Below, one piece after another: positions 14,666-22,712 of a stretch of 64,000 nucleotides of DNA. Position 1 is the first letter of the stretch; each line of letters starts with the position of its first letter. This DNA is from an uncultured Candidatus Saccharibacteria bacterium (GTDB lineage Bacteria > Patescibacteriota > Minisyncoccia > Phycocordibacterales > DSPV01). The notes below the pieces were generated by a model. It made no database searches and had not been told where the DNA came from. It was given only the letters and a program-made list of their open reading frames with translations. The position numbers and the translations under genes were made by a program. The DNA lies in assembly GCA_964617735.1 (NCBI GenBank), contig CAZTXT010000001.1, positions 138,338 through 202,337 of the forward strand, written 5' to 3'.

Positions 14666-15685
14666 ATGTACAGTGGGTGCAGGATACTTTTTGCGATTTG
14701 CTGGTTGCGGTGTCCCTATGCCTGTCGTGTCGCACAATGTTACCATAGCGCTATGGCAAGCGATATCGAGAAGCTCAAACGCCAATTTCTCGAGTATATC
14801 GAGATAGAAAAAGGCCGCGCGTTAAAGACTGTCGAGAATTACGACCGGTATCTCTCTCGTTTCATCGAGTATTCAAAGATAAAAAAGCCTAGCGGTATCA
14901 CTGAAGCTTCAGTGCGCGATTTTCGTCTCTGGCTTAATCGCCAACCCACTCACAACAAGTGGGTCAAGGGCGAAACCTTGAAGAAAAAGACCCAGAATTA
15001 TTATCTGATCGCGCTGCGCGCGTTTCTGAAATTCCTTTCCAAGCGCGGCATCAGCGCGATATCTCCAGAACATATCGAACTTGCGAAAGCTGGTGAGCGC
15101 TCACTTGACTTGATAACAGCCGAAGAACTTGCACGGCTCCTGAACGCTCCGAAGGATGCCGATCTCAAATCACTTCGGGACAAGGCCATTCTCGAGCTTC
15201 TCTTCTCGACCGGCCTGCGCGTATCGGAGCTTTGTTCCCTCACCCGTGACCTCGACCTTTCTGCCGATGAATTCTCGGTACGAGGCAAGGGAGAGAAAGT
15301 GCGAGTGGTATTCCTTTCGTCTCAGGCGAAAGCTGCGCTCAAGCGCTACCTCGCGGCGCGGACCGACGTCGATGATGCACTGTTCGTGAAAGTGAGTTGG
15401 GAGAGGAAGGGTAGAACCAAGGATTTTGCTCTGACCCCTCGCTCTGTAGAGCGTATTGTAAAATATCATGCTAATAAGGCGGGCATCTCGAAAAAAGTCA
15501 CCCCGCATGTCATACGCCATTGTTTCGCGACCGATCTTCTCTCCAACGGCGCGGACCTGCGGTCGGTCCAGGCACTTTTAGGCCATGCCAATATCGGTAC
15601 CACGCAGATCTATACCCACGTAACGGATAAGCATTTACACGAGGTCCACAAAGCCTTTCACGGTCGTGTCAGGAAAAAGGCTTGA
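14666..15685 (+). CDS. xerC: tyrosine site-specific recombinase XerC/XerD family. Probable true start at the ATG at 14753 (MASDIEKLK...).
   Basis: C-terminal catalytic motifs HVIRHCFATDLL and LLGHANIGTTQIYTHV (R-H-R-Y family). N-terminal SAM-like core-binding domain. Confidence 0.85.
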   Translation: MYSGCRILFAICWLRCPYACRVAQCYHSAMASDIEKLKRQFLEYIEIEKGRALKTVENYDRYLSRFIEYSKIKKPSGITEASVRDFRLWLNRQPTHNKWVKGETLKKKTQNYYLIALRAFLKFLSKRGISAISPEHIELAKAGERSLDLITAEELARLLNAPKDADLKSLRDKAILELLFSTGLRVSELCSLTRDLDLSADEFSVRGKGEKVRVVFLSSQAKAALKRYLAARTDVDDALFVKVSWERKGRTKDFALTPRSVERIVKYHANKAGISKKVTPHVIRHCFATDLLSNGADLRSVQALLGHANIGTTQIYTHVTDKHLHEVHKAFHGRVRKKA

Positions 15686-17212: not shown

Positions 17213-17257
17213 ACCGCTCAGAAAGATTTTCCCACTCCTCTTCTGAGCGGTTTTTTT
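17213..17257 (+). terminator. rho-independent terminator (CCGCTCAGAA ... TTCTGAGCGG followed by TTTTTTT) ending a roughly 290-nt AT-rich region downstream of xth
   Basis: 10-bp stem plus a 7-T run on the plus strand. It overlaps the stop codon of the convergent cca gene. Confidence 0.55.
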
Positions 17258-18770
17258 ATTTCACCCAGTATCGATCTCGTATTTTCTTTAGGTTTTTCTC
17301 TTCGGCAGCTTCTTTTTTTGCTTTACCGATGTTGCCGAGATTTTCTAATTTTTTATCGCTCAAAGATGCTAATTCTTTAACCCGGCTTTCAAGCTTCTCG
17401 GCTGTATTGAGCGCCGGATTTTCCATTACATCTTCCAACAAGACGTGCAAAATATGGCCCACCTTAGGTCCCGGTTCGATTTTTGCGATTTCCATTACCT
17501 TCGCCCCGTTGATTTTAAGCATACTTACCGTTATCGGATCATGCATCACCTCTTCCACCATAGACTTGTATTTTCGTAGTCTATACGGATGCTCTTTAGG
17601 CCTTCCTGTTCCAATTCTGTCACAGACGCGCACGTTCATAAGGTCCCATATATTTTCCTTTCCAACGTTCCTCAAAAGTCTGCGGACCGAAGAGAGGGTT
17701 ATCTGATCGGTGTCCGAGAAAAACATATGCCATCGAACCAATGTAACGACTTTTTCAATGGTTTTCACGGGAAACATAAGCTTCGAGAGGATTTTGGCCG
17801 TCATTTTGCTTCCCATGACGTCATGGCCGTGGAAAGTCCAATCTTTTTTTTCCTCTGACCATTTTCGAGCTGGTACTTTCCCTATATCGTGGAAAAGGGC
17901 AGCTAGCCTTACTTCGAGTGACCAGCCATTTTTCGCGGCATGTTGAAGGGTACGAAGTAAATGTTCCCAAACGTCATATGCGTGAGCTTTATTCTGTTTT
18001 ATACCGATAGTTTCAGTAAGTTCAGGGAGAAATATTGTAAGTAAGCCATATTCTTTCAGAAGGATGATTCCATTCATTGGTTGATCGGACATAAGAATCC
18101 GGGCGAATTCGTCCCGTACTCTTTCACGTGAAACTCCTGAAAGATGTTTTGCATTCCTCTTTATTGCTTCTGATGTCTCTTTTTCTATTGAGAAATCAAG
18201 TTCTGTGGAAAGTCTTATTGCTCTCATTATCCTCAAAGCGTCTTCCTTAAATCGCTCATCTGGGTCGCCAACAGCTCGGATAATGCGCATCCGGATGTCG
18301 TCCTGTCCTTTATAAAGGTCAACTATGTGTCCTTTATACCTAGAATGTCCTTTATGCTCGGCGAGCTTTACTGCTATGGCATTTATGGTGAAATCCCTTC
18401 GCTTAAGATCGTCTTCAATGTTGTTGCTGAACGATACCGAGTCGGGGTGTCGCTGATTTGAATATTTTGATTCAAGCCGATATGGGGTTACCTCAACTGT
18501 TTTAGTTGTCTCATCTTCGCTCTCTTCATTGACTACGCCGACTGTTCCATACTCATTTTCATAGAAGGTTTTTGGGAAAATAGATAGTATCTTCTCTGGC
18601 GTTGCGCTTGTCGTTATGTCCCAATCCTTCGGTTTTTTACCGATAAGCATATCCCGGGTGCACCCGCCGATGAGATAGGCCTCAAAACCCTGTTCTTCAA
18701 GGGTTTTAGCGATCTTCGCGACCGCCTCGGGTATGGTGAATAGCTTCTCTTTCATAGTCCCAGTTGGCAA
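17256..18770 (-). CDS. cca: CCA-adding enzyme / tRNA nucleotidyltransferase with a C-terminal HD domain. Probable ATG start at 18755 (MKEKLF...), because the track start is a TTG.
   Basis: FEAYLIGGCTRDMLIG...DWDITT PolyA_pol head domain. HD motif LAALFHDIGK in the C-terminal half. Confidence 0.85.
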   Translation of the reverse strand: MPTGTMKEKLFTIPEAVAKIAKTLEEQGFEAYLIGGCTRDMLIGKKPKDWDITTSATPEKILSIFPKTFYENEYGTVGVVNEESEDETTKTVEVTPYRLESKYSNQRHPDSVSFSNNIEDDLKRRDFTINAIAVKLAEHKGHSRYKGHIVDLYKGQDDIRMRIIRAVGDPDERFKEDALRIMRAIRLSTELDFSIEKETSEAIKRNAKHLSGVSRERVRDEFARILMSDQPMNGIILLKEYGLLTIFLPELTETIGIKQNKAHAYDVWEHLLRTLQHAAKNGWSLEVRLAALFHDIGKVPARKWSEEKKDWTFHGHDVMGSKMTAKILSKLMFPVKTIEKVVTLVRWHMFFSDTDQITLSSVRRLLRNVGKENIWDLMNVRVCDRIGTGRPKEHPYRLRKYKSMVEEVMHDPITVSMLKINGAKVMEIAKIEPGPKVGHILHVLLEDVMENPALNTAEKLESRVKELASLSDKKLENLGNIGKAKKEAAEEKNLKKIRDRYWVK

Positions 18771-18784
18771 AATTTTAGTATATC

Positions 18785-18813
18785 TTTGGCAATTTAGCTA
18801 ATTTTAGCTATGA
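18785..18813 (+). promoter_or_regulatory. promoter candidate for tRNA-Arg (TTGGCA - 17 nt - TATGAT)
   Basis: Hexamers read directly. The -10 ends about 8 nt before the tRNA 5' end. Confidence 0.35.
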
Positions 18814-18821
18814 TTTTTTGA

Positions 18822-18896
18822 TGCTCCCGTGGTGAAATGGATATCACAACAGTCTTCGGAACTGTTGTTCCAGGTTCGAGTCCTGGCGGGAGCACC
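18822..18896 (+). tRNA. tRNA-Arg (anticodon TCG), CCA encoded
   Basis: Manual cloverleaf: acceptor GCTCCCG/CGGGAGC, D-stem GTGA/TCAC, anticodon stem ACAGT/ACTGT with loop CTTCGGA, T-arm CCAGG-TTCGAGT-CCTGG, 3' ACCA. Confidence 0.8.
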
Positions 18897-18947
18897 AGAT
18901 TGGACTTTGCGATGCTCAAAGTAAAGAGAGGATTTCTTTCCTTTGTT

Positions 18948-18975
18948 TTGCAAAGTTATGTTTTGTCCCTATAAT
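18948..18975 (+). promoter_or_regulatory. near-consensus sigma70 promoter for tRNA-Gly (TTGCAA - 16 nt - TATAAT)
   Basis: Hexamers read directly. The -10 ends 19 nt upstream of the tRNA 5' end. Confidence 0.5.
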
Positions 18976-18994
18976 TACAGGGCGATTCGTGAGA

Positions 18995-19065
18995 GCGGGT
19001 ATCGTTTAGTGGTAGGACGGTTCCTTGCCAAGGAACAGGTGGGAGTTCGATTCTCCCTACCCGCA
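18995..19065 (+). tRNA. tRNA-Gly (anticodon GCC)
   Basis: Acceptor GCGGGTA/TACCCGC, anticodon stem GTTCC/GGAAC with loop TTGCCAA, T-arm GGGAG-TTCGATT-CTCCC. No encoded CCA. Confidence 0.8.
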
Positions 19066-19181
19066 TAGGTGTCCTTTAGCTTCAAGAGATCGTTTTGTGC
19101 TTATTTTTAGGGATACATTGAGATCATGTGGATAAGTTTGTGGATATGTGTATAAAGGACAAGAACGATGTCTTTTAGCTT

Positions 19182-19625
19182 GTGGAAATGGATCGGAATA
19201 GTCCGAGACGGGGAGTGTTTCTAAGTAACCTGATTCACGTGGAAAATATCAACCACATCGACGTTGGTAAAAAAGGAGAAGAGATCGCCTGCCGATATCT
19301 CAAGAGCAAAGGGCATCACATTGTCGAACGAAACTTTCGTAAAAAATTCGGAGAGATAGATATCGTCAGTCGAAAAGGAAATAAGGTTTATATTTGTGAA
19401 GTCAAAACATTCGCGTATGATGGTCGAAATGGCGCGGGATCGCATCGGCCGGAAGACAATGTGACGCCATGGAAGTTGAAAAAACTTTCGCGGGTCGTTC
19501 AGATTTATCTGGTAAAAAAGTTCGGTACAGAATTTCCTGAATGGGAATTTTTAGTCGCTTCGGTGGTGTTGGATATGGAAAGGAGGATCGCGAGAATAAA
19601 GATCATCGCTGACGTGCTGGCATAA
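19182..19625 (+). CDS. yraN: YraN/UPF0102 family putative endonuclease. The track start is GTG; the true start is probably further downstream.
   Basis: GEEIACRYLKSKGHHIVERNFR...GEIDIVSRKGNKVYICEVKT matches the YraN (Holliday-junction-resolvase-like) signature. Confidence 0.7.
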   Translation: MEMDRNSPRRGVFLSNLIHVENINHIDVGKKGEEIACRYLKSKGHHIVERNFRKKFGEIDIVSRKGNKVYICEVKTFAYDGRNGAGSHRPEDNVTPWKLKKLSRVVQIYLVKKFGTEFPEWEFLVASVVLDMERRIARIKIIADVLA

Positions 19626-19668
19626 GCTGCACGCAGCGAGGACTATCGATGAGGAGGATTTGTTGCAA

Positions 19669-19739
19669 CGGGCTGTAGTATAGCGGTAGTATATGTGCTT
19701 TGGGAGCATAAGGTCCGGGTTCGACTCCCGGCAGCCCGA
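19669..19739 (+). tRNA. tRNA-Pro (anticodon TGG)
   Basis: Acceptor CGGGCTG/CAGCCCG, D-stem GTAT/GTAT with G-U pairs, anticodon stem TGTGC/GCATA with loop TTTGGGA (G37 typical of Pro), T-arm CCGGG-TTCGACT-CCCGG. Confidence 0.75.
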
Positions 19740-19842
19740 GCGTTAGAGAGGGATGAGCGAGCAATGGGAGTTGCTCGCAACGGGAGGCGAAGCCCGATTG
19801 AGTTCCGCCGAAGGTGGACCAATCAGGGTACTGAACCGGTAC

Positions 19843-19865
19843 GGTTCGACTCCCGGTAGCCCAAG
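19843..19865 (+). repeat. direct repeat of the tRNA-Pro 3' end (21/23 nt identical to 19718..19740), att-core-like
   Basis: GGTTCGACTCCCGG[C/T]AGCCC[G/A]AG occurs twice, 125 nt apart. The second copy has no complete cloverleaf around it. Confidence 0.45.
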
Positions 19866-20309
19866 AGGCGCAGTGAGCGATTTTTAGCGAAAGAGATCGT
19901 CACCAAAATTCTAAGATTTCTGCAACGTAGTGTTGCTGCCACGGTGAGCGCTAGGCACGAATGGAGAGAAAAATATTTTGTGTTGTTTACGCGGCATGGA
20001 ACGTGGGAGGATGTCAGTGTTGCAACCACTCGTGCACTAGAAAAGTTTAGGGGAGAATCGGGCAAATACTGACTGCGCGTATCGGAGCACTCGCCCCTAT
20101 ACGCTGGTTTCGTTTCTGGAGGGCAGGTCAAAGGGTGTTGGGTAATACTGAAGAGATAATCGTGGGGATTTAGAGAAGAAACCATAGCTCATGCAAGTAC
20201 CGTGCCTATAGAGAACGATTCTTATTTGAGTGAACACCTTCTGTCGACCTTAGAACCTTCCGTAGACCTTAAAAAAGAGTAGTATGGTAGCAATCAAATC
20301 AAAAAACGT

Positions 20310-20918
20310 ATGAGACCGGAACGGGCACTTCGTCAGCTTAATGAGTTGAGAACATTGGGAAATACTATGCGTCTCGCCGCGGATGGCTGGAAAGAGCCAT
20401 GGCAGACGCTTATCGCCATTATCATGTCTGCGCGAACGCGCGACGAAGTGACTATTGCAGTGAGCGAGAGGCTTTTTAAGCGATATCCGACCGTGGAGCG
20501 GCTTGCGCGCGCGAGTCGGGGAGTGATCGAGAAGATCATCCGGCCGGTGAACTTCTACCGCAACAAAGCGAAATCGGTCCTCAACTGTGCGCGATCGCTT
20601 GTCACAAATCATCACGGGCGACCACCTGAGACCGTCGAAGAGCTTGTTTTGCTTCCCGGTGTGGGCCGTAAAACAGCGAATGTTTTTTTGACGGCGAGAG
20701 GGTATGATGCAATCGGAGTCGACACGCACGTTGCATACATTTCCCGAGAGCTTGGTTGGACGAAAAATCGCGATCCACACAAGATCGAAAAAGATCTTGA
20801 AGCGCTGTTTCCTCAACATATCTGGAAAGATGTGAACACGACTTGTGTGCAGTTCGGCAAAACGCATTTGAGTAGGAAAAAGAAAAAAGCGTTGTTGATG
20901 CGTATCCGTTCCCTTTAA
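20310..20918 (+). CDS. nth: endonuclease III-like HhH-GPD DNA glycosylase
   Basis: LIAIIMSARTRDEV (helix before the HhH), LPGVGRKTANVFL, and catalytic Asp in GVDTHV. 202 aa. Confidence 0.85.
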   Translation: MRPERALRQLNELRTLGNTMRLAADGWKEPWQTLIAIIMSARTRDEVTIAVSERLFKRYPTVERLARASRGVIEKIIRPVNFYRNKAKSVLNCARSLVTNHHGRPPETVEELVLLPGVGRKTANVFLTARGYDAIGVDTHVAYISRELGWTKNRDPHKIEKDLEALFPQHIWKDVNTTCVQFGKTHLSRKKKKALLMRIRSL

Positions 20919-20926
20919 ATCATCGC

Positions 20927-21754
20927 ATGCAGTTATCTACTGATACAGTTCAAAAGTTTCAGGATACGATCGCGGCGCACTATCGATTGCGCGGGCGGGT
21001 TTTTCCGTGGAGGAACACGCGCGACCCATATCACATTTTGGTTTCCGAAATCATGTTACAGCAAACTCAAGCGGATCGCGTCGTTCCGTTCTTTGAGCGA
21101 TTCATAAAACTTTTTCCTACGGTGGCCTCGCTGGCCAAAGCGAAACCGCGCACACTCCTGCGCGCGTGGCAAGGACTTGGTTATAATCGCCGCGCGCTCT
21201 ATCTCAAGCGCGCGGCTGAAGCGATACGCACAGAATTCTCTTCCATAGTTCCCCGCACAGTGCACGAATTAGAATCTCTGCCGGGGGTGGGGAAGTACAC
21301 CGCCGCTGCAGTCATGGCATTCGCGTACAGTGCGCCGGTCGCATTTATCGAAACGAATATCCGCAGCGTCTATCTCCATTTCTTTTTTAAAAATAAAAGA
21401 TCGGTCAGTGATCGTGCTATTCTCTCGCTCGTCGAGCAAACGCTTGACCGGAAGAATCCCGGCGTCTGGTATCAAGCGCTCATGGATTATGGCGCTCTTC
21501 TTAAAAAAGAGAGCGGCAATCCGAACCAAAGAAGCAAGCACTACGTCAAACAGGGCGTATTCAAGGGTTCTCGACGTCATGTACGCGGGCGCATCATCTC
21601 GTCTGCGCTCGCCGGTCCCTTGACGGCGCTTGAGATGCGGAAGTTACGAGCAGAGCATGCATTTTCTTCGACTCAAGTGGAGCAGGCGATCGCAGACCTT
21701 GTCGCCGAAGGATTTCTGCGGCGCAAAGGCGCTTCATTCGTCCTCTCCGAATGA
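20927..21754 (+). CDS. A/G-specific adenine glycosylase-like (MutY-like) HhH-GPD protein
   Basis: ILVSEIMLQQTQADRV and LPGVGKYTAAAVMAFAY HhH-GPD motifs. 275 aa. The 4Fe-4S cysteine cluster is not obvious. Confidence 0.75.
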   Translation: MQLSTDTVQKFQDTIAAHYRLRGRVFPWRNTRDPYHILVSEIMLQQTQADRVVPFFERFIKLFPTVASLAKAKPRTLLRAWQGLGYNRRALYLKRAAEAIRTEFSSIVPRTVHELESLPGVGKYTAAAVMAFAYSAPVAFIETNIRSVYLHFFFKNKRSVSDRAILSLVEQTLDRKNPGVWYQALMDYGALLKKESGNPNQRSKHYVKQGVFKGSRRHVRGRIISSALAGPLTALEMRKLRAEHAFSSTQVEQAIADLVAEGFLRRKGASFVLSE

Positions 21755-22035
21755 GCCGTCGATTCAAAAAAACTGTCGAACAATTCTCTTGCGAGCATTG
21801 CGGCGCGTTGGTGGAAGGGAATGGATTCACCAATCACTGCCCAATGTGCCTCTACAGCAAGCACAGCGATATCTTCCCCGGTGATCGGGCAAATCCGTGC
21901 GGGGGATTGATGGAGCCGATCAGCCTTGCGCTTAAACGCGACGCATATATCATTACCCATCGCTGTATGAAATGCGGGCAGGAGAAGAGGAATCGTGCAA
22001 GCGAGACCGACCATATTGAGATTTTGCTTCGCTGA
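21751..22035 (+). CDS. RNHCP domain zinc-ribbon protein
   Basis: CEHCGA...FTNHCPMC...CMKCGQ. Start overlaps the upstream stop (ATGA). Confidence 0.6.
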   Translation: MSRRFKKTVEQFSCEHCGALVEGNGFTNHCPMCLYSKHSDIFPGDRANPCGGLMEPISLALKRDAYIITHRCMKCGQEKRNRASETDHIEILLR

Positions 22036-22061
22036 TTTTCTTCAGGTATAGTAGCGGGGTT

Positions 22062-22132
22062 GCGGGTGTGGTTTAGTGGTAGGACGACTGCCTTCCAAGC
22101 AGTAGGCGCGAGTTCGATTCTCGCCACCCGCA
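22062..22132 (+). tRNA. tRNA-Gly (anticodon TCC)
   Basis: Acceptor GCGGGTG/CACCCGC, anticodon stem ACTGC/GCAGT with loop CTTCCAA, T-arm GCGAG-TTCGATT-CTCGC. Confidence 0.8.
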
Positions 22133-22133
22133 T

Positions 22134-22712
22134 CTAAAATCTCTGGAGTTTTTTGCGTAGGTATTTGCCGACCAGATGTTCGGCGAATCCCGCGATGAGG
22201 ATTATGACGACGAGCCCGACCTCGGCGATCCTGATGTAGTGTCGCAGGAGGACGAACGAAGCAGAGAAGCCGATGCCCAATGCCGCGATGATAATGAACC
22301 AGAATCCGCCAGCAATAGCATCCATCCGGATGAATTGCCGGGGCGTGATGCGCAGCTGATGCATGCGGATGAGTATGAATCGGTGGAGAAAGTAAGCGAA
22401 CTTCGATATCGAGAGGGTTGCGAAGGGCCTTTGAACAATCGCCCGATCGATGAACGGCACCATCTGAGTAATTTTGCGGTGAGGGAGAAATGGCTCGATA
22501 TATCCGCCCAGGTAGTACCAGCCGATATCTCCGATCCACATGCCGGCAAGGGCGGTGACAATAACTAGTCGAAGATCGAGGTAGCCCAGTTCGGCAGAAA
22601 AAATTCCCGCGAGGAGCGCTACTTCGCCTTCCACAGCCATACCTACGAAGAGCACAGAGTAGGCCAGCAGCGGCACCTCGATGAGTTTGTTAAGAATTAT
22701 TGATTCCCACAT
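22134..22712 (-). CDS. dedA: DedA/SNARE-associated family membrane protein
   Basis: Multi-TM. VTALAGMWIGDIGWYYLG matches the DedA signature. 192 aa. Confidence 0.8.
   Translation of the reverse strand: MWESIILNKLIEVPLLAYSVLFVGMAVEGEVALLAGIFSAELGYLDLRLVIVTALAGMWIGDIGWYYLGGYIEPFLPHRKITQMVPFIDRAIVQRPFATLSISKFAYFLHRFILIRMHQLRITPRQFIRMDAIAGGFWFIIIAALGIGFSASFVLLRHYIRIAEVGLVVIILIAGFAEHLVGKYLRKKLQRF

Follow-up and report, generated by a model that had tools for sequence, protein, structure and literature searches.

The non-coding DNA behind the tRNA-Pro(UGG) gene in the 64-kb stretch of contig CAZTXT010000001.1 analysed here (the window, to which all unprefixed positions refer) begins with one copy of a small structured family (19740-19865). 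On balance this is probably an insertion-type tRNA-trailer element, with a mechanism that we infer. Hallmarks of the family are a folded scaffold and a terminal copy of the tail of the upstream tRNA, and we traced it in related metagenome contigs of Paceibacteria, numbered L below. The tRNA-trailer element is apparently an undescribed class in Patescibacteria. Rfam 15 returned only tRNAs and noise for the window at gathering score, for 18700-22300 at E≤10 and for ten element loci at E≤1, and no description of such elements was found in the literature searched.

The last ~22 nt of tRNA-Pro comprise the T loop, the 3′ strand of the T stem, the 3′ strand of the acceptor stem and A73. This tail, GGTTCGACTCCCGGCAGCCCGAG (19718-19740), recurs at 19843-19865 as GGTTCGACTCCCGGTAGCCCAAG, with 21 of 23 nucleotides identical and 102 nt between the repeats. 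A first inspection of the letters (hereafter the sequence-only reading) had pointed to this copy with its two changes, and the copy is real and non-random: no further one with three or fewer mismatches occurs elsewhere in the 64 kb, and none arose in 100 shuffles. The perfect hairpin that the same reading had seen downstream of tRNA-Pro is also present, as GCGAGCAA(U)/(G)UUGCUCGC with 8-9 bp at 19757-19778, and corresponds to helix P1 of the family. A second cloverleaf around the copy, which the reading could not build, was not found by ARAGORN either. ARAGORN and Rfam confirmed tRNA-Pro itself and detected no known RNA in 19740-20310. The hairpin and the tail copy are two parts of one structured, tRNA-specific recurrent element. 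The observation is confirmed, and the interpretation first given to it, an integration scar or a structured RNA, is partly supported. An independent assembly of the locus, L081 from Logan, has the identical sequence throughout this stretch.

Folded alone, 19740-19865 has a minimum free energy (MFE) of -55.6 kcal/mol (z -4.48) and none of 200 shuffles was as good. The unconstrained MFE fold is the family layout P0-P1-P2-P3-P4 (Table 1). The element begins 1-6 nt after tRNA-Pro and lies on the same strand. Save for one base, CGGGAGGCGAA is the reverse complement of tRNA positions 54-64 (TTCGACTCCCG), and the GGTTCG through which the window copy reaches 23 nt belongs to P4 as its 3′ strand. A helix at the position of P3 is also found in L153, L187, L207, L152, L099 and L116.

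Membership in the family was assessed using models of its two conserved modules. The model of the 5′ module (R1) found ~35 further sites, including one in L129, which is outside its seed alignment. We rebuilt the 5′ module from 27 R1 sites with the window excluded (R2) and searched both strands of the 64 kb with filters off. The top match was 19745-19794 with 31.1 bits (E 3.1e-6), followed by a match of 13.6 bits. The model of the 3′ module of subgroup B1 (R3), made from six other elements and again without the window, spans GUACUG, a 5-bp P4 with the GUA loop, AG/CG and the P2 3′ strand. It had its top match in the 64 kb at 19822-19859 (25.1 bits, E 2.9e-4; next 14.5 bits). Both top matches are on the same strand and in the expected order, 28 nt apart. 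The window copy thus very probably belongs to the tRNA-trailer family, and the two covariance models, for the 5′ and 3′ modules, are a direct means to map it.

A metagenome scan with the conserved 5′ half of the tRNA-Pro of the clade resulted in 120 loci. We counted tail copies with annotated tRNAs masked, on the same strand, up to 250 nt downstream and with a score of at least 14, and of 96 distinct loci, 16 had part of the tail of their own tRNA-Pro a second time; none of the 91 upstream controls exceeded a score of 10. No tail copy was farther than 245 nt from the tRNA in 132 tRNA-Pro loci. The association with tRNA genes is also evident from the model matches, as 29 of 32 start between -12 and +130 nt relative to where a tRNA on the same strand ends (chance fraction 0.04, p ~1e-37). 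Family members lie on the strand of the tRNA, start 0-65 nt after the gene and are 100-250 nt in size. The hosts belong to at least ten tRNA species, namely Pro(tgg), Pro(ggg), Gly(gcc), Gly(tcc), Arg(tcg), Arg(cct), Arg(ccg), Ser(cga), Phe(gaa) and Leu(cag). Some contigs carry several copies: L104 has three (after tRNA-Pro, tRNA-Arg and tRNA-Gly) and L187 also has three.

Two layouts can be distinguished. Type A units, found at tRNA-Pro loci, consist of an acceptor-like strand (GGGUG), AAGGAGCAUGNGGU, a complete covarying T arm and the acceptor 3′ strand, without a D or anticodon arm. They directly follow tRNA-Pro at L090:4195-4241 and in L206, L195 (two units), L165, L152 (first unit), L199 and L133. 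Their T stems covary (CCGAG/CUCGG, CUGGG/CCCAG, CCCAG/CUGGG), and the acceptor sequence can differ from that of the resident tRNA. Type B elements, to which the window belongs, contain only the last 14-23 nt of the tail, preceded by a shared scaffold. From 5′ to 3′ this scaffold reads as an acceptor-5′-like strand (P0), P1 in the place of the D and anticodon arms, a GU-type linker, the T-stem 5′ strand with a T-loop complement ending in CGAA (P2), and a branched core. Pairing of the tail copy continues from P2 into P0 without interruption, so that the tRNA tail forms the 3′ strand of the helix that closes the element.

Type B falls into two subgroups. The core of B1 consists of P3, GUACUG (or ACCYG), P4 with a GUA loop, and AG; its members are the window element, those at tRNA-Pro of L153, L187 and L207, at tRNA-Arg of L187 and L207, at tRNA-Gly of L152, at tRNA-Pro(ggg) of L116, and the one in L099. 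The last is an orphan without upstream tRNA (L099:1877-2000), beside an HNH gene on the minus strand (1046-1708); an HNH-domain gene (L090:4261-4959) also follows a type A unit. B2 has a longer core, which includes a hairpin, P5, that is nearly invariant within a genome. P5 is nearly identical among copies at different tRNAs in one contig (the tRNA-Arg and tRNA-Gly elements of L104, and L137, L122, L175 and L190), and this likeness reflects concerted evolution or recent spread within the genome. At two sites the sequence starts again behind the tail copy: at the contig end of L153 the post-tRNA sequence restarts with at least 38 nt of the terminator, and after the tRNA-Arg element of L104 it restarts with the first bases of an element. 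Such restarts point to tandem arrays, circular junctions or a loop in the assembly graph.

Several findings indicate that the structure of the scaffold is under selection. P1 is 98.7% paired over 27 sequences and all nine of its pairs have changed on both sides; none of 500 shuffles reached its score, and slid controls paired at 25-47%. The stems of P4 vary (AACCG/CGGUU, CUCCU/AGGAG, GCUAC/GUAGC, UUCCU/AGGAA, AGUCU/AGACU) around an invariant GUA loop. Between genomes or contig groups, P5 of the B2 elements shows a compensatory change from G-C to A-U. In 18 of 20 elements the strand in tRNA sense forms a more stable fold than the complementary strand (mean difference 6.6 kcal/mol, p 1.4e-4). 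In the one usable orthologous pair, substitutions (3 of 162 positions in the element and 6 of 150 in the flanks) are too few to compare rates.

The elements are tailored to the tRNA that they follow. About 20 of 29 end in a 15-20 nt copy of the tail of their own tRNA, two of the 21 scoring matches having been set aside as probable neighbouring tRNAs. In the 20 elements analysed, 353 of 360 nucleotides of the copies are identical to the own tRNA (98%). The remaining elements have shortened or decayed copies, and no distant copy was found for the seven with weak or truncated ones. The 5′ arm forms its best duplex with the cognate tail in 18 of 27 elements, with a mean energy of -23.8 kcal/mol compared to -16.4 kcal/mol for other tRNA species. 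For the window the values are -23.5 and -17.4 kcal/mol, and the cognate tail was the best of the 19 tested. The fit of the arm is less tight than that of the copy, with 87% of the copy positions paired with the 5′ arm against 98% identity to the tRNA tail. In L129 and in the tRNA-Pro elements of L104 and L207 the copy is exact, while the 5′ arm fits another tRNA-Pro allele (GGGGUG with CACCCC; a CCGGG-type T stem). As the copy follows the resident tRNA almost perfectly, we take it to be made from the target or corrected against it.

Comparison of related loci, which the sequence-only reading had proposed as a source of empty sites, indeed revealed empty and filled sites. L180 and L190 share the promoter region and have an identical tRNA-Pro. 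In the empty L180, ...CCCGA is directly followed by cagtgttatgacgaagc; in the filled L190, the tRNA is followed by a 152-nt element with an 18-nt tail copy and then by cagtgtcacgctgaagc. The stretch behind the tail in L180 and that behind the copy in L190 are identical at 21 of 31 positions. Sharing is limited to ~45 nt upstream, the tRNA and ~30 nt downstream, and a global alignment of the two loci is uninformative because their outer flanks differ. L187 is likewise filled, and in L218, L113, L135 and L211 the same tRNA is directly followed by the RNHCP gene. Elements also decay: the P1 loop of L127 contains a 72-nt insertion, and copies are truncated in L202, L217, L116 and at tRNA-Gly of L152. 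The element and one tail copy are likely to come and go jointly, as a unit.

On the reading that we prefer, an insertion-type element, such a unit would enter or leave behind a tRNA gene that stays intact, so that the insertion becomes flanked by direct repeats of the tail, one of which would be made from, or corrected against, the target tRNA. The 5′ arm carried by the element, antisense to the tail, could be a base-pairing specificity module that picks the tRNA 3′ end. It would then fold onto the duplicated tail, in the transcript or in single-stranded DNA, and leave the tRNA undisturbed. The element would in this way behave as an intron-like, protein-less and structure-dependent insertion element of tRNA trailers. 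We regard pairing-guided insertion as a tentative proposal. Still more doubtful is the broader idea that bacteria of the Candidate Phyla Radiation have a class of guide-directed insertion elements, in which a split antisense arm reads the last ~20 nt of a tRNA gene or transcript, installs the element behind the tRNA and duplicates the tail, with copies programmed for at least ten tRNA species, or alternatively a class of RNAs that mimic the cognate tRNA tail.

Several points weigh against an insertion element. Intrinsic terminators lie between the tRNA and the element in L153, L207, L171, L223 and at the tRNA-Gly copies of L104 and L137, which argues against simple co-transcription. No insertion enzyme was identified, and no autonomous protein-coding version was seen among the loci examined. 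Retargeting to ten tRNA species would pose the problem of altering both internal antisense segments for every new tRNA. Paralogous copies that follow different tRNAs of the same genome have a nearly identical P5 but differ in P1 and P3; sharing limited to P5 agrees with long-maintained copies that undergo gene conversion no less well than with recent transposition. The empty sites could stem from deletion between the direct repeats and not from insertion. Finally, P0 of the window has only 3 bp and the tail copy two changes, and the window copy may therefore be slightly decayed.

The main rival is a vertically kept accessory RNA, a kind of shadow tRNA for each tRNA, in which the closing helix imitates the acceptor/T stack of the cognate; we consider it rather unlikely. 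Such an RNA could be a processing signal, where a cut by RNase P at the 5′ side of the mimic frees the 3′ trailer of the upstream tRNA, as it does between the genes of a polycistronic tRNA transcript, and where the discriminator of the copy could be a site of action for RNase Z and the CCA-adding enzyme. Another possible role is that of a tRNA-specific decoy or sponge. Gene conversion would preserve the match to the neighbouring tRNA, and compensatory selection would preserve the antisense arm. The strong covariation of P1 and P4 and the compensatory change in P5 speak for a maintained RNA, as do the paralogues that differ in P1 and P3 yet keep the scaffold, the retention in very compact genomes and the greater stability of the sense strand. 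The copy moreover ends at or just after the discriminator, followed by CCA in L153 and in the tRNA-Arg element of L122 as in a tRNA, and the related type A units keep a complete covarying T arm and an acceptor-like stem. However, only ~17% of tRNA-Pro loci have an element, its presence differs between close relatives, truncated copies are common, and in many loci terminators separate it from the tRNA. The T loop serves as a ruler for RNase P, RNase Z and the CCA enzyme, and type B elements replace it by a long helix and a junction. A generic processing signal need not match the cognate tRNA, and it would be needless between closely spaced tRNA genes, where elements also occur (L104, L129).

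Known tRNA-like structures, minihelices and external guide sequences of RNase P resemble the element in having a helix with the acceptor and T-stem 3′ strand that ends at the discriminator, and a branch hairpin at the position of the D and anticodon arms. The element differs from them by the extended helix and three-way junction in place of the T loop, by a helix of 16-19 bp instead of 12, and by being cognate-specific for many tRNAs.

The integration scar considered by the sequence-only reading, i.e. a duplication of attachment (att) sites by a tyrosine-integrase element that entered tRNA-Pro and was later almost wholly deleted, is largely refuted and very unlikely. What stands of it is that the duplication is tied to gain and loss of DNA at tRNA 3′ ends. 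The direct repeat runs over the tRNA 3′ end from the T loop, and att identity blocks at tRNA genes usually extend from there; there are exact presence/absence alleles, a variable gene slot beside the tRNA and a Xer-like recombinase gene 4 kb away. What does not stand is the integrase, as no version bearing one was seen: between the repeats is a conserved covarying scaffold, found at no fewer than ten tRNA species, and no large or integrase-bearing insert was present between them in 96 tRNA-Pro loci or 29 elements. An att scar also does not predict a 5′ arm that is antisense specifically to its own tRNA. The synteny of the nearby recombinase is preserved in relatives (L089), which is the behaviour expected of a housekeeping Xer, and the identity block has no exact match in viral contigs.

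The att duplications of integrative elements, including those of the att-flanked cis-mobilizable elements (CIMEs) that have no integrase, share with the family a repeat of the tRNA 3′ end from the T loop, an intact gene and alleles that are exact to the repeat. In contrast to these, the family has no integrase or cargo between the repeats at any locus, an insert of 100-250 nt that covaries, one scaffold for at least ten tRNAs and an internal antisense arm. In the folded single-stranded attP of CTX-type phages and the attC of integrons, a DNA hairpin mimics the duplex on which a host recombinase acts. The element is similar to both in that inverted segments ~100 nt apart rebuild a duplex target and that structure is conserved while sequence varies, but its target is the tRNA tail and not dif or attI, its core is branched with conserved junctions, and neither a phage genome nor a cassette open reading frame (ORF) is present. 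A casposon of Aciduliprofundum boonei has reportedly inserted at the 3′ end of tRNA-Pro with a target duplication of 14-15 bp. The long (15-20 bp) duplication of a tRNA 3′ end and tRNA-Pro as target are alike, whereas the element lacks terminal inverted repeats and genes for Cas1 or polymerase, measures 0.1-0.25 kb, uses many tRNA hosts and has a duplication of 14-23 nt.

Group I introns of Patescibacteria tRNA genes interrupt the anticodon loop at position 35/36 and match RF00028 (Nakagawa et al. 2026, PMC13011429); no trailer, T-loop or duplication elements were found in the text of that paper. Like the elements, these introns are protein-less, structured, attached to tRNA and patchy, carry a guide-like segment complementary to the tRNA and occur in the same phylum. 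The element differs in following an intact tRNA, in having no Rfam match and in being too small. A group I intron was thus rejected: the tRNA is uninterrupted, the core of ~60-100 nt is far too small, and neither the window nor the ten element loci match RF00028.

A decaying local partial duplication of tRNA-Pro, a pseudo-tRNA with chance hairpins and no function, is most improbable. The missing second cloverleaf, the two mismatches in the copy and the weak P0 of the window would suit it, but R2 and R3 find both halves of a shared scaffold, which refutes this reading unless the two models are artefacts; the fold has a z of -4.5, and the scaffold recurs with covariation in other genomes and at other tRNAs.

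Least probable of all is a known RNA that was missed by eye, such as RNase P RNA, transfer-messenger RNA (tmRNA, including the permuted form), a group I intron or a self-cleaving ribozyme. The sequence-only reading had remarked on a loose likeness to RNase P RNA; GUACUGAACC...CAGUGAGCGAUU resembles E. coli M1 RNA. Rfam does not support this likeness, as 19740-20310 remains without a match at a cut-off as loose as E≤10. Patescibacteria often have group I introns in their tRNA genes (PMC13011429), but Rfam 15 had nothing for the window region at E≤10 or for the ten element loci at E≤1, and ARAGORN reported no tmRNA.

Further candidates were tried and rejected. For RNase P RNA, neither the search of 18700-22300 at E≤10 nor that of the window at gathering score gave a match, and tmRNA, standard or permuted, was reported by neither ARAGORN nor Rfam. 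By inspection, the junction strands (CGAA / GUACUG / AG) misfit the core of a hammerhead, and the antisense arm matches genomic trailer bases and not CCA, unlike a primer-binding site of retroviral type. An IS200/IS605 guide and a TnpB omega-RNA were likewise rejected by inspection, since neither paired terminal hairpins with a conserved sequence nor a nuclease gene is present. A miniature inverted-repeat transposable element does not fit, as the ends (left ACGA.AGUGA..., right ...GGAGAG or ...CUCGUGAC) are not inverted repeats and the duplication varies between 14 and 23 nt. For a phage, plasmid or viral origin, 19741-20309 showed no similarity, and six core-motif matches in viral contigs are due to chance, with no tRNA or model match nearby.

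The streamlined genomes of Patescibacteria have little non-coding DNA, yet several tRNA genes per genome carry a folded element of 100-250 nt that matches their own 3′ end. If the elements are mobile, tRNA genes would be targeted by nucleic-acid pairing in place of an integrase, with a simple and reprogrammable scaffold. If they are functional RNAs, they would represent an unrecognised tRNA-specific layer of maturation, protection or decoying in organisms short of the usual RNA-processing machinery. In practical terms, duplications of tRNA tails in these genomes should not be taken for scars of prophages or islands.

Table 1. Positions of the tRNA-trailer element, its parts and the adjoining features in the window
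Feature	Position	Strand	Description and basis
tRNA-Pro(UGG)	19669..19739	+	intact, without encoded CCA; ARAGORN; Rfam tRNA 64.4 bits
Whole tRNA-trailer element, subgroup B1, ~125 nt	19740..19865	+	from the first base behind the tRNA through the tail copy
5′ module	19745..19794	+	leader, P1, AA linker, P2 5′ strand, junction GCGAA; match of model R2
P0	19750-19752 with 19860-19862	+	GGG (in leader) with CCC; MFE fold
P1 hairpin	19757..19778	+	GCGAGCAAU / GUUGCUCGC, loop GGGA; MFE fold; family covariation
P2	19781-19786 with 19850-19855	+	CGGGAG (antisense T-arm strand) with CUCCCG; MFE fold
Junction GCGAA	19787-19791	+	follows P2 5′ strand
P3, variable-sequence hairpin	19792..19829	+	GCCCGAUUG...CAAUC(A)GGGU, inner stem CCGCC/GGUGG; MFE fold
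3′ module	19822..19859	+	P3 end, GUACUG, P4, P2 3′ strand; match of model R3
Junction GUACUG	19828-19833	+	between P3 and P4
P4 hairpin	19832-19848	+	GAACCG-GUA-CGGUUC (19833-19847), loop GUA 19839-19841; MFE fold
tRNA-Pro tail copy, 21/23	19843..19865	+	forms the 3′ strands of P4 (in part), P2 and P0 and is no independent repeat
Lineage-specific spacer, ~445 nt	19866..20309		variable slot; outside the element
Tandem 19-nt direct repeat	20236..20273	+	ACCTTCTGTCGACCTTAGA / ACCTTCCGTAGACCTTAAA, 16/19 identical; 37 nt upstream of nth start; outside the element
nth (endonuclease III)	20310..20918	+	right-hand limit of the non-coding stretch

The remaining spacer, 19866-20309, is filler unrelated to the element, in a slot that holds different genes in relatives. 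It folds no better than its shuffles (z +1.5). The structured RNA offered by the sequence-only reading was the closer of its two options, since one conserved fold includes both the hairpin and the copy as strands of its helices, but the ~445 nt after the copy are unstructured. They gave no blastn or tblastx match in the 223 related loci (tblastx E≤0.1) and none with R2 or R3. As that reading had also held, the spacer contains no credible ORF: no gene is called between the UPF0102 gene and nth in L081, and none of five ORFs (one of 120 aa on the minus strand and short ones on the plus strand) has a Pfam match. The 120-aa ORF, described as not protein-like, has no homologue among 5.8 billion proteins. 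The 68-codon frame 19866-20069 had a single match, P0241, among 1.84 billion proteins; as P0241 is a translated tandem repeat, we treated the match as spurious. The spacer probably holds the promoter of nth together with the 19-nt tandem repeat, which may be an operator or promoter element of the operon of nth, mutY-like and RNHCP genes.

Synteny in relatives, recovered via P0122, P0149 and P0125, reads CCA enzyme (minus strand), tRNA-Arg, tRNA-Gly, UPF0102, tRNA-Pro, X, nth, mutY-like and RNHCP. Slot X contains a 313-aa NAD-dependent epimerase in L096-L103, a 232-aa HNH-domain protein in L090-L095 and nothing in L206. A pseudogene of the epimerase or HNH gene was rejected for the window, as tblastn gave only noise in 19600-20400 and tblastx nothing. 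The nth gene is a poor anchor for synteny, its closest Nth proteins being 58-65% identical and partly archaeal-like. In the closest relatives by CCA-adding enzyme (72% identity), synteny ends right after tRNA-Arg and they are uninformative for the slot.

Four kb upstream of the tRNA cluster, 14753-15685 (plus strand) encodes a Xer-like tyrosine recombinase with Phage_int_SAM_1 and Phage_integrase domains. It is probably a housekeeping XerC/D and not an island integrase, since a similar recombinase is found near CCA-enzyme and phosphatase genes in L089. Within the cluster, tRNA-Arg(tcg) at 18823-18897 encodes CCA (...GGGAGCACCA), while the tRNAs at 18995-19065, 19669-19739 and 22061-22134 do not. 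The gene of the CCA-adding enzyme (17256-18770, minus strand) adjoins tRNA-Arg(tcg). A close relative (L082:1490-4694) has two divergent paralogues of this enzyme head to head, which could possibly represent split CC-adding and A-adding enzymes.

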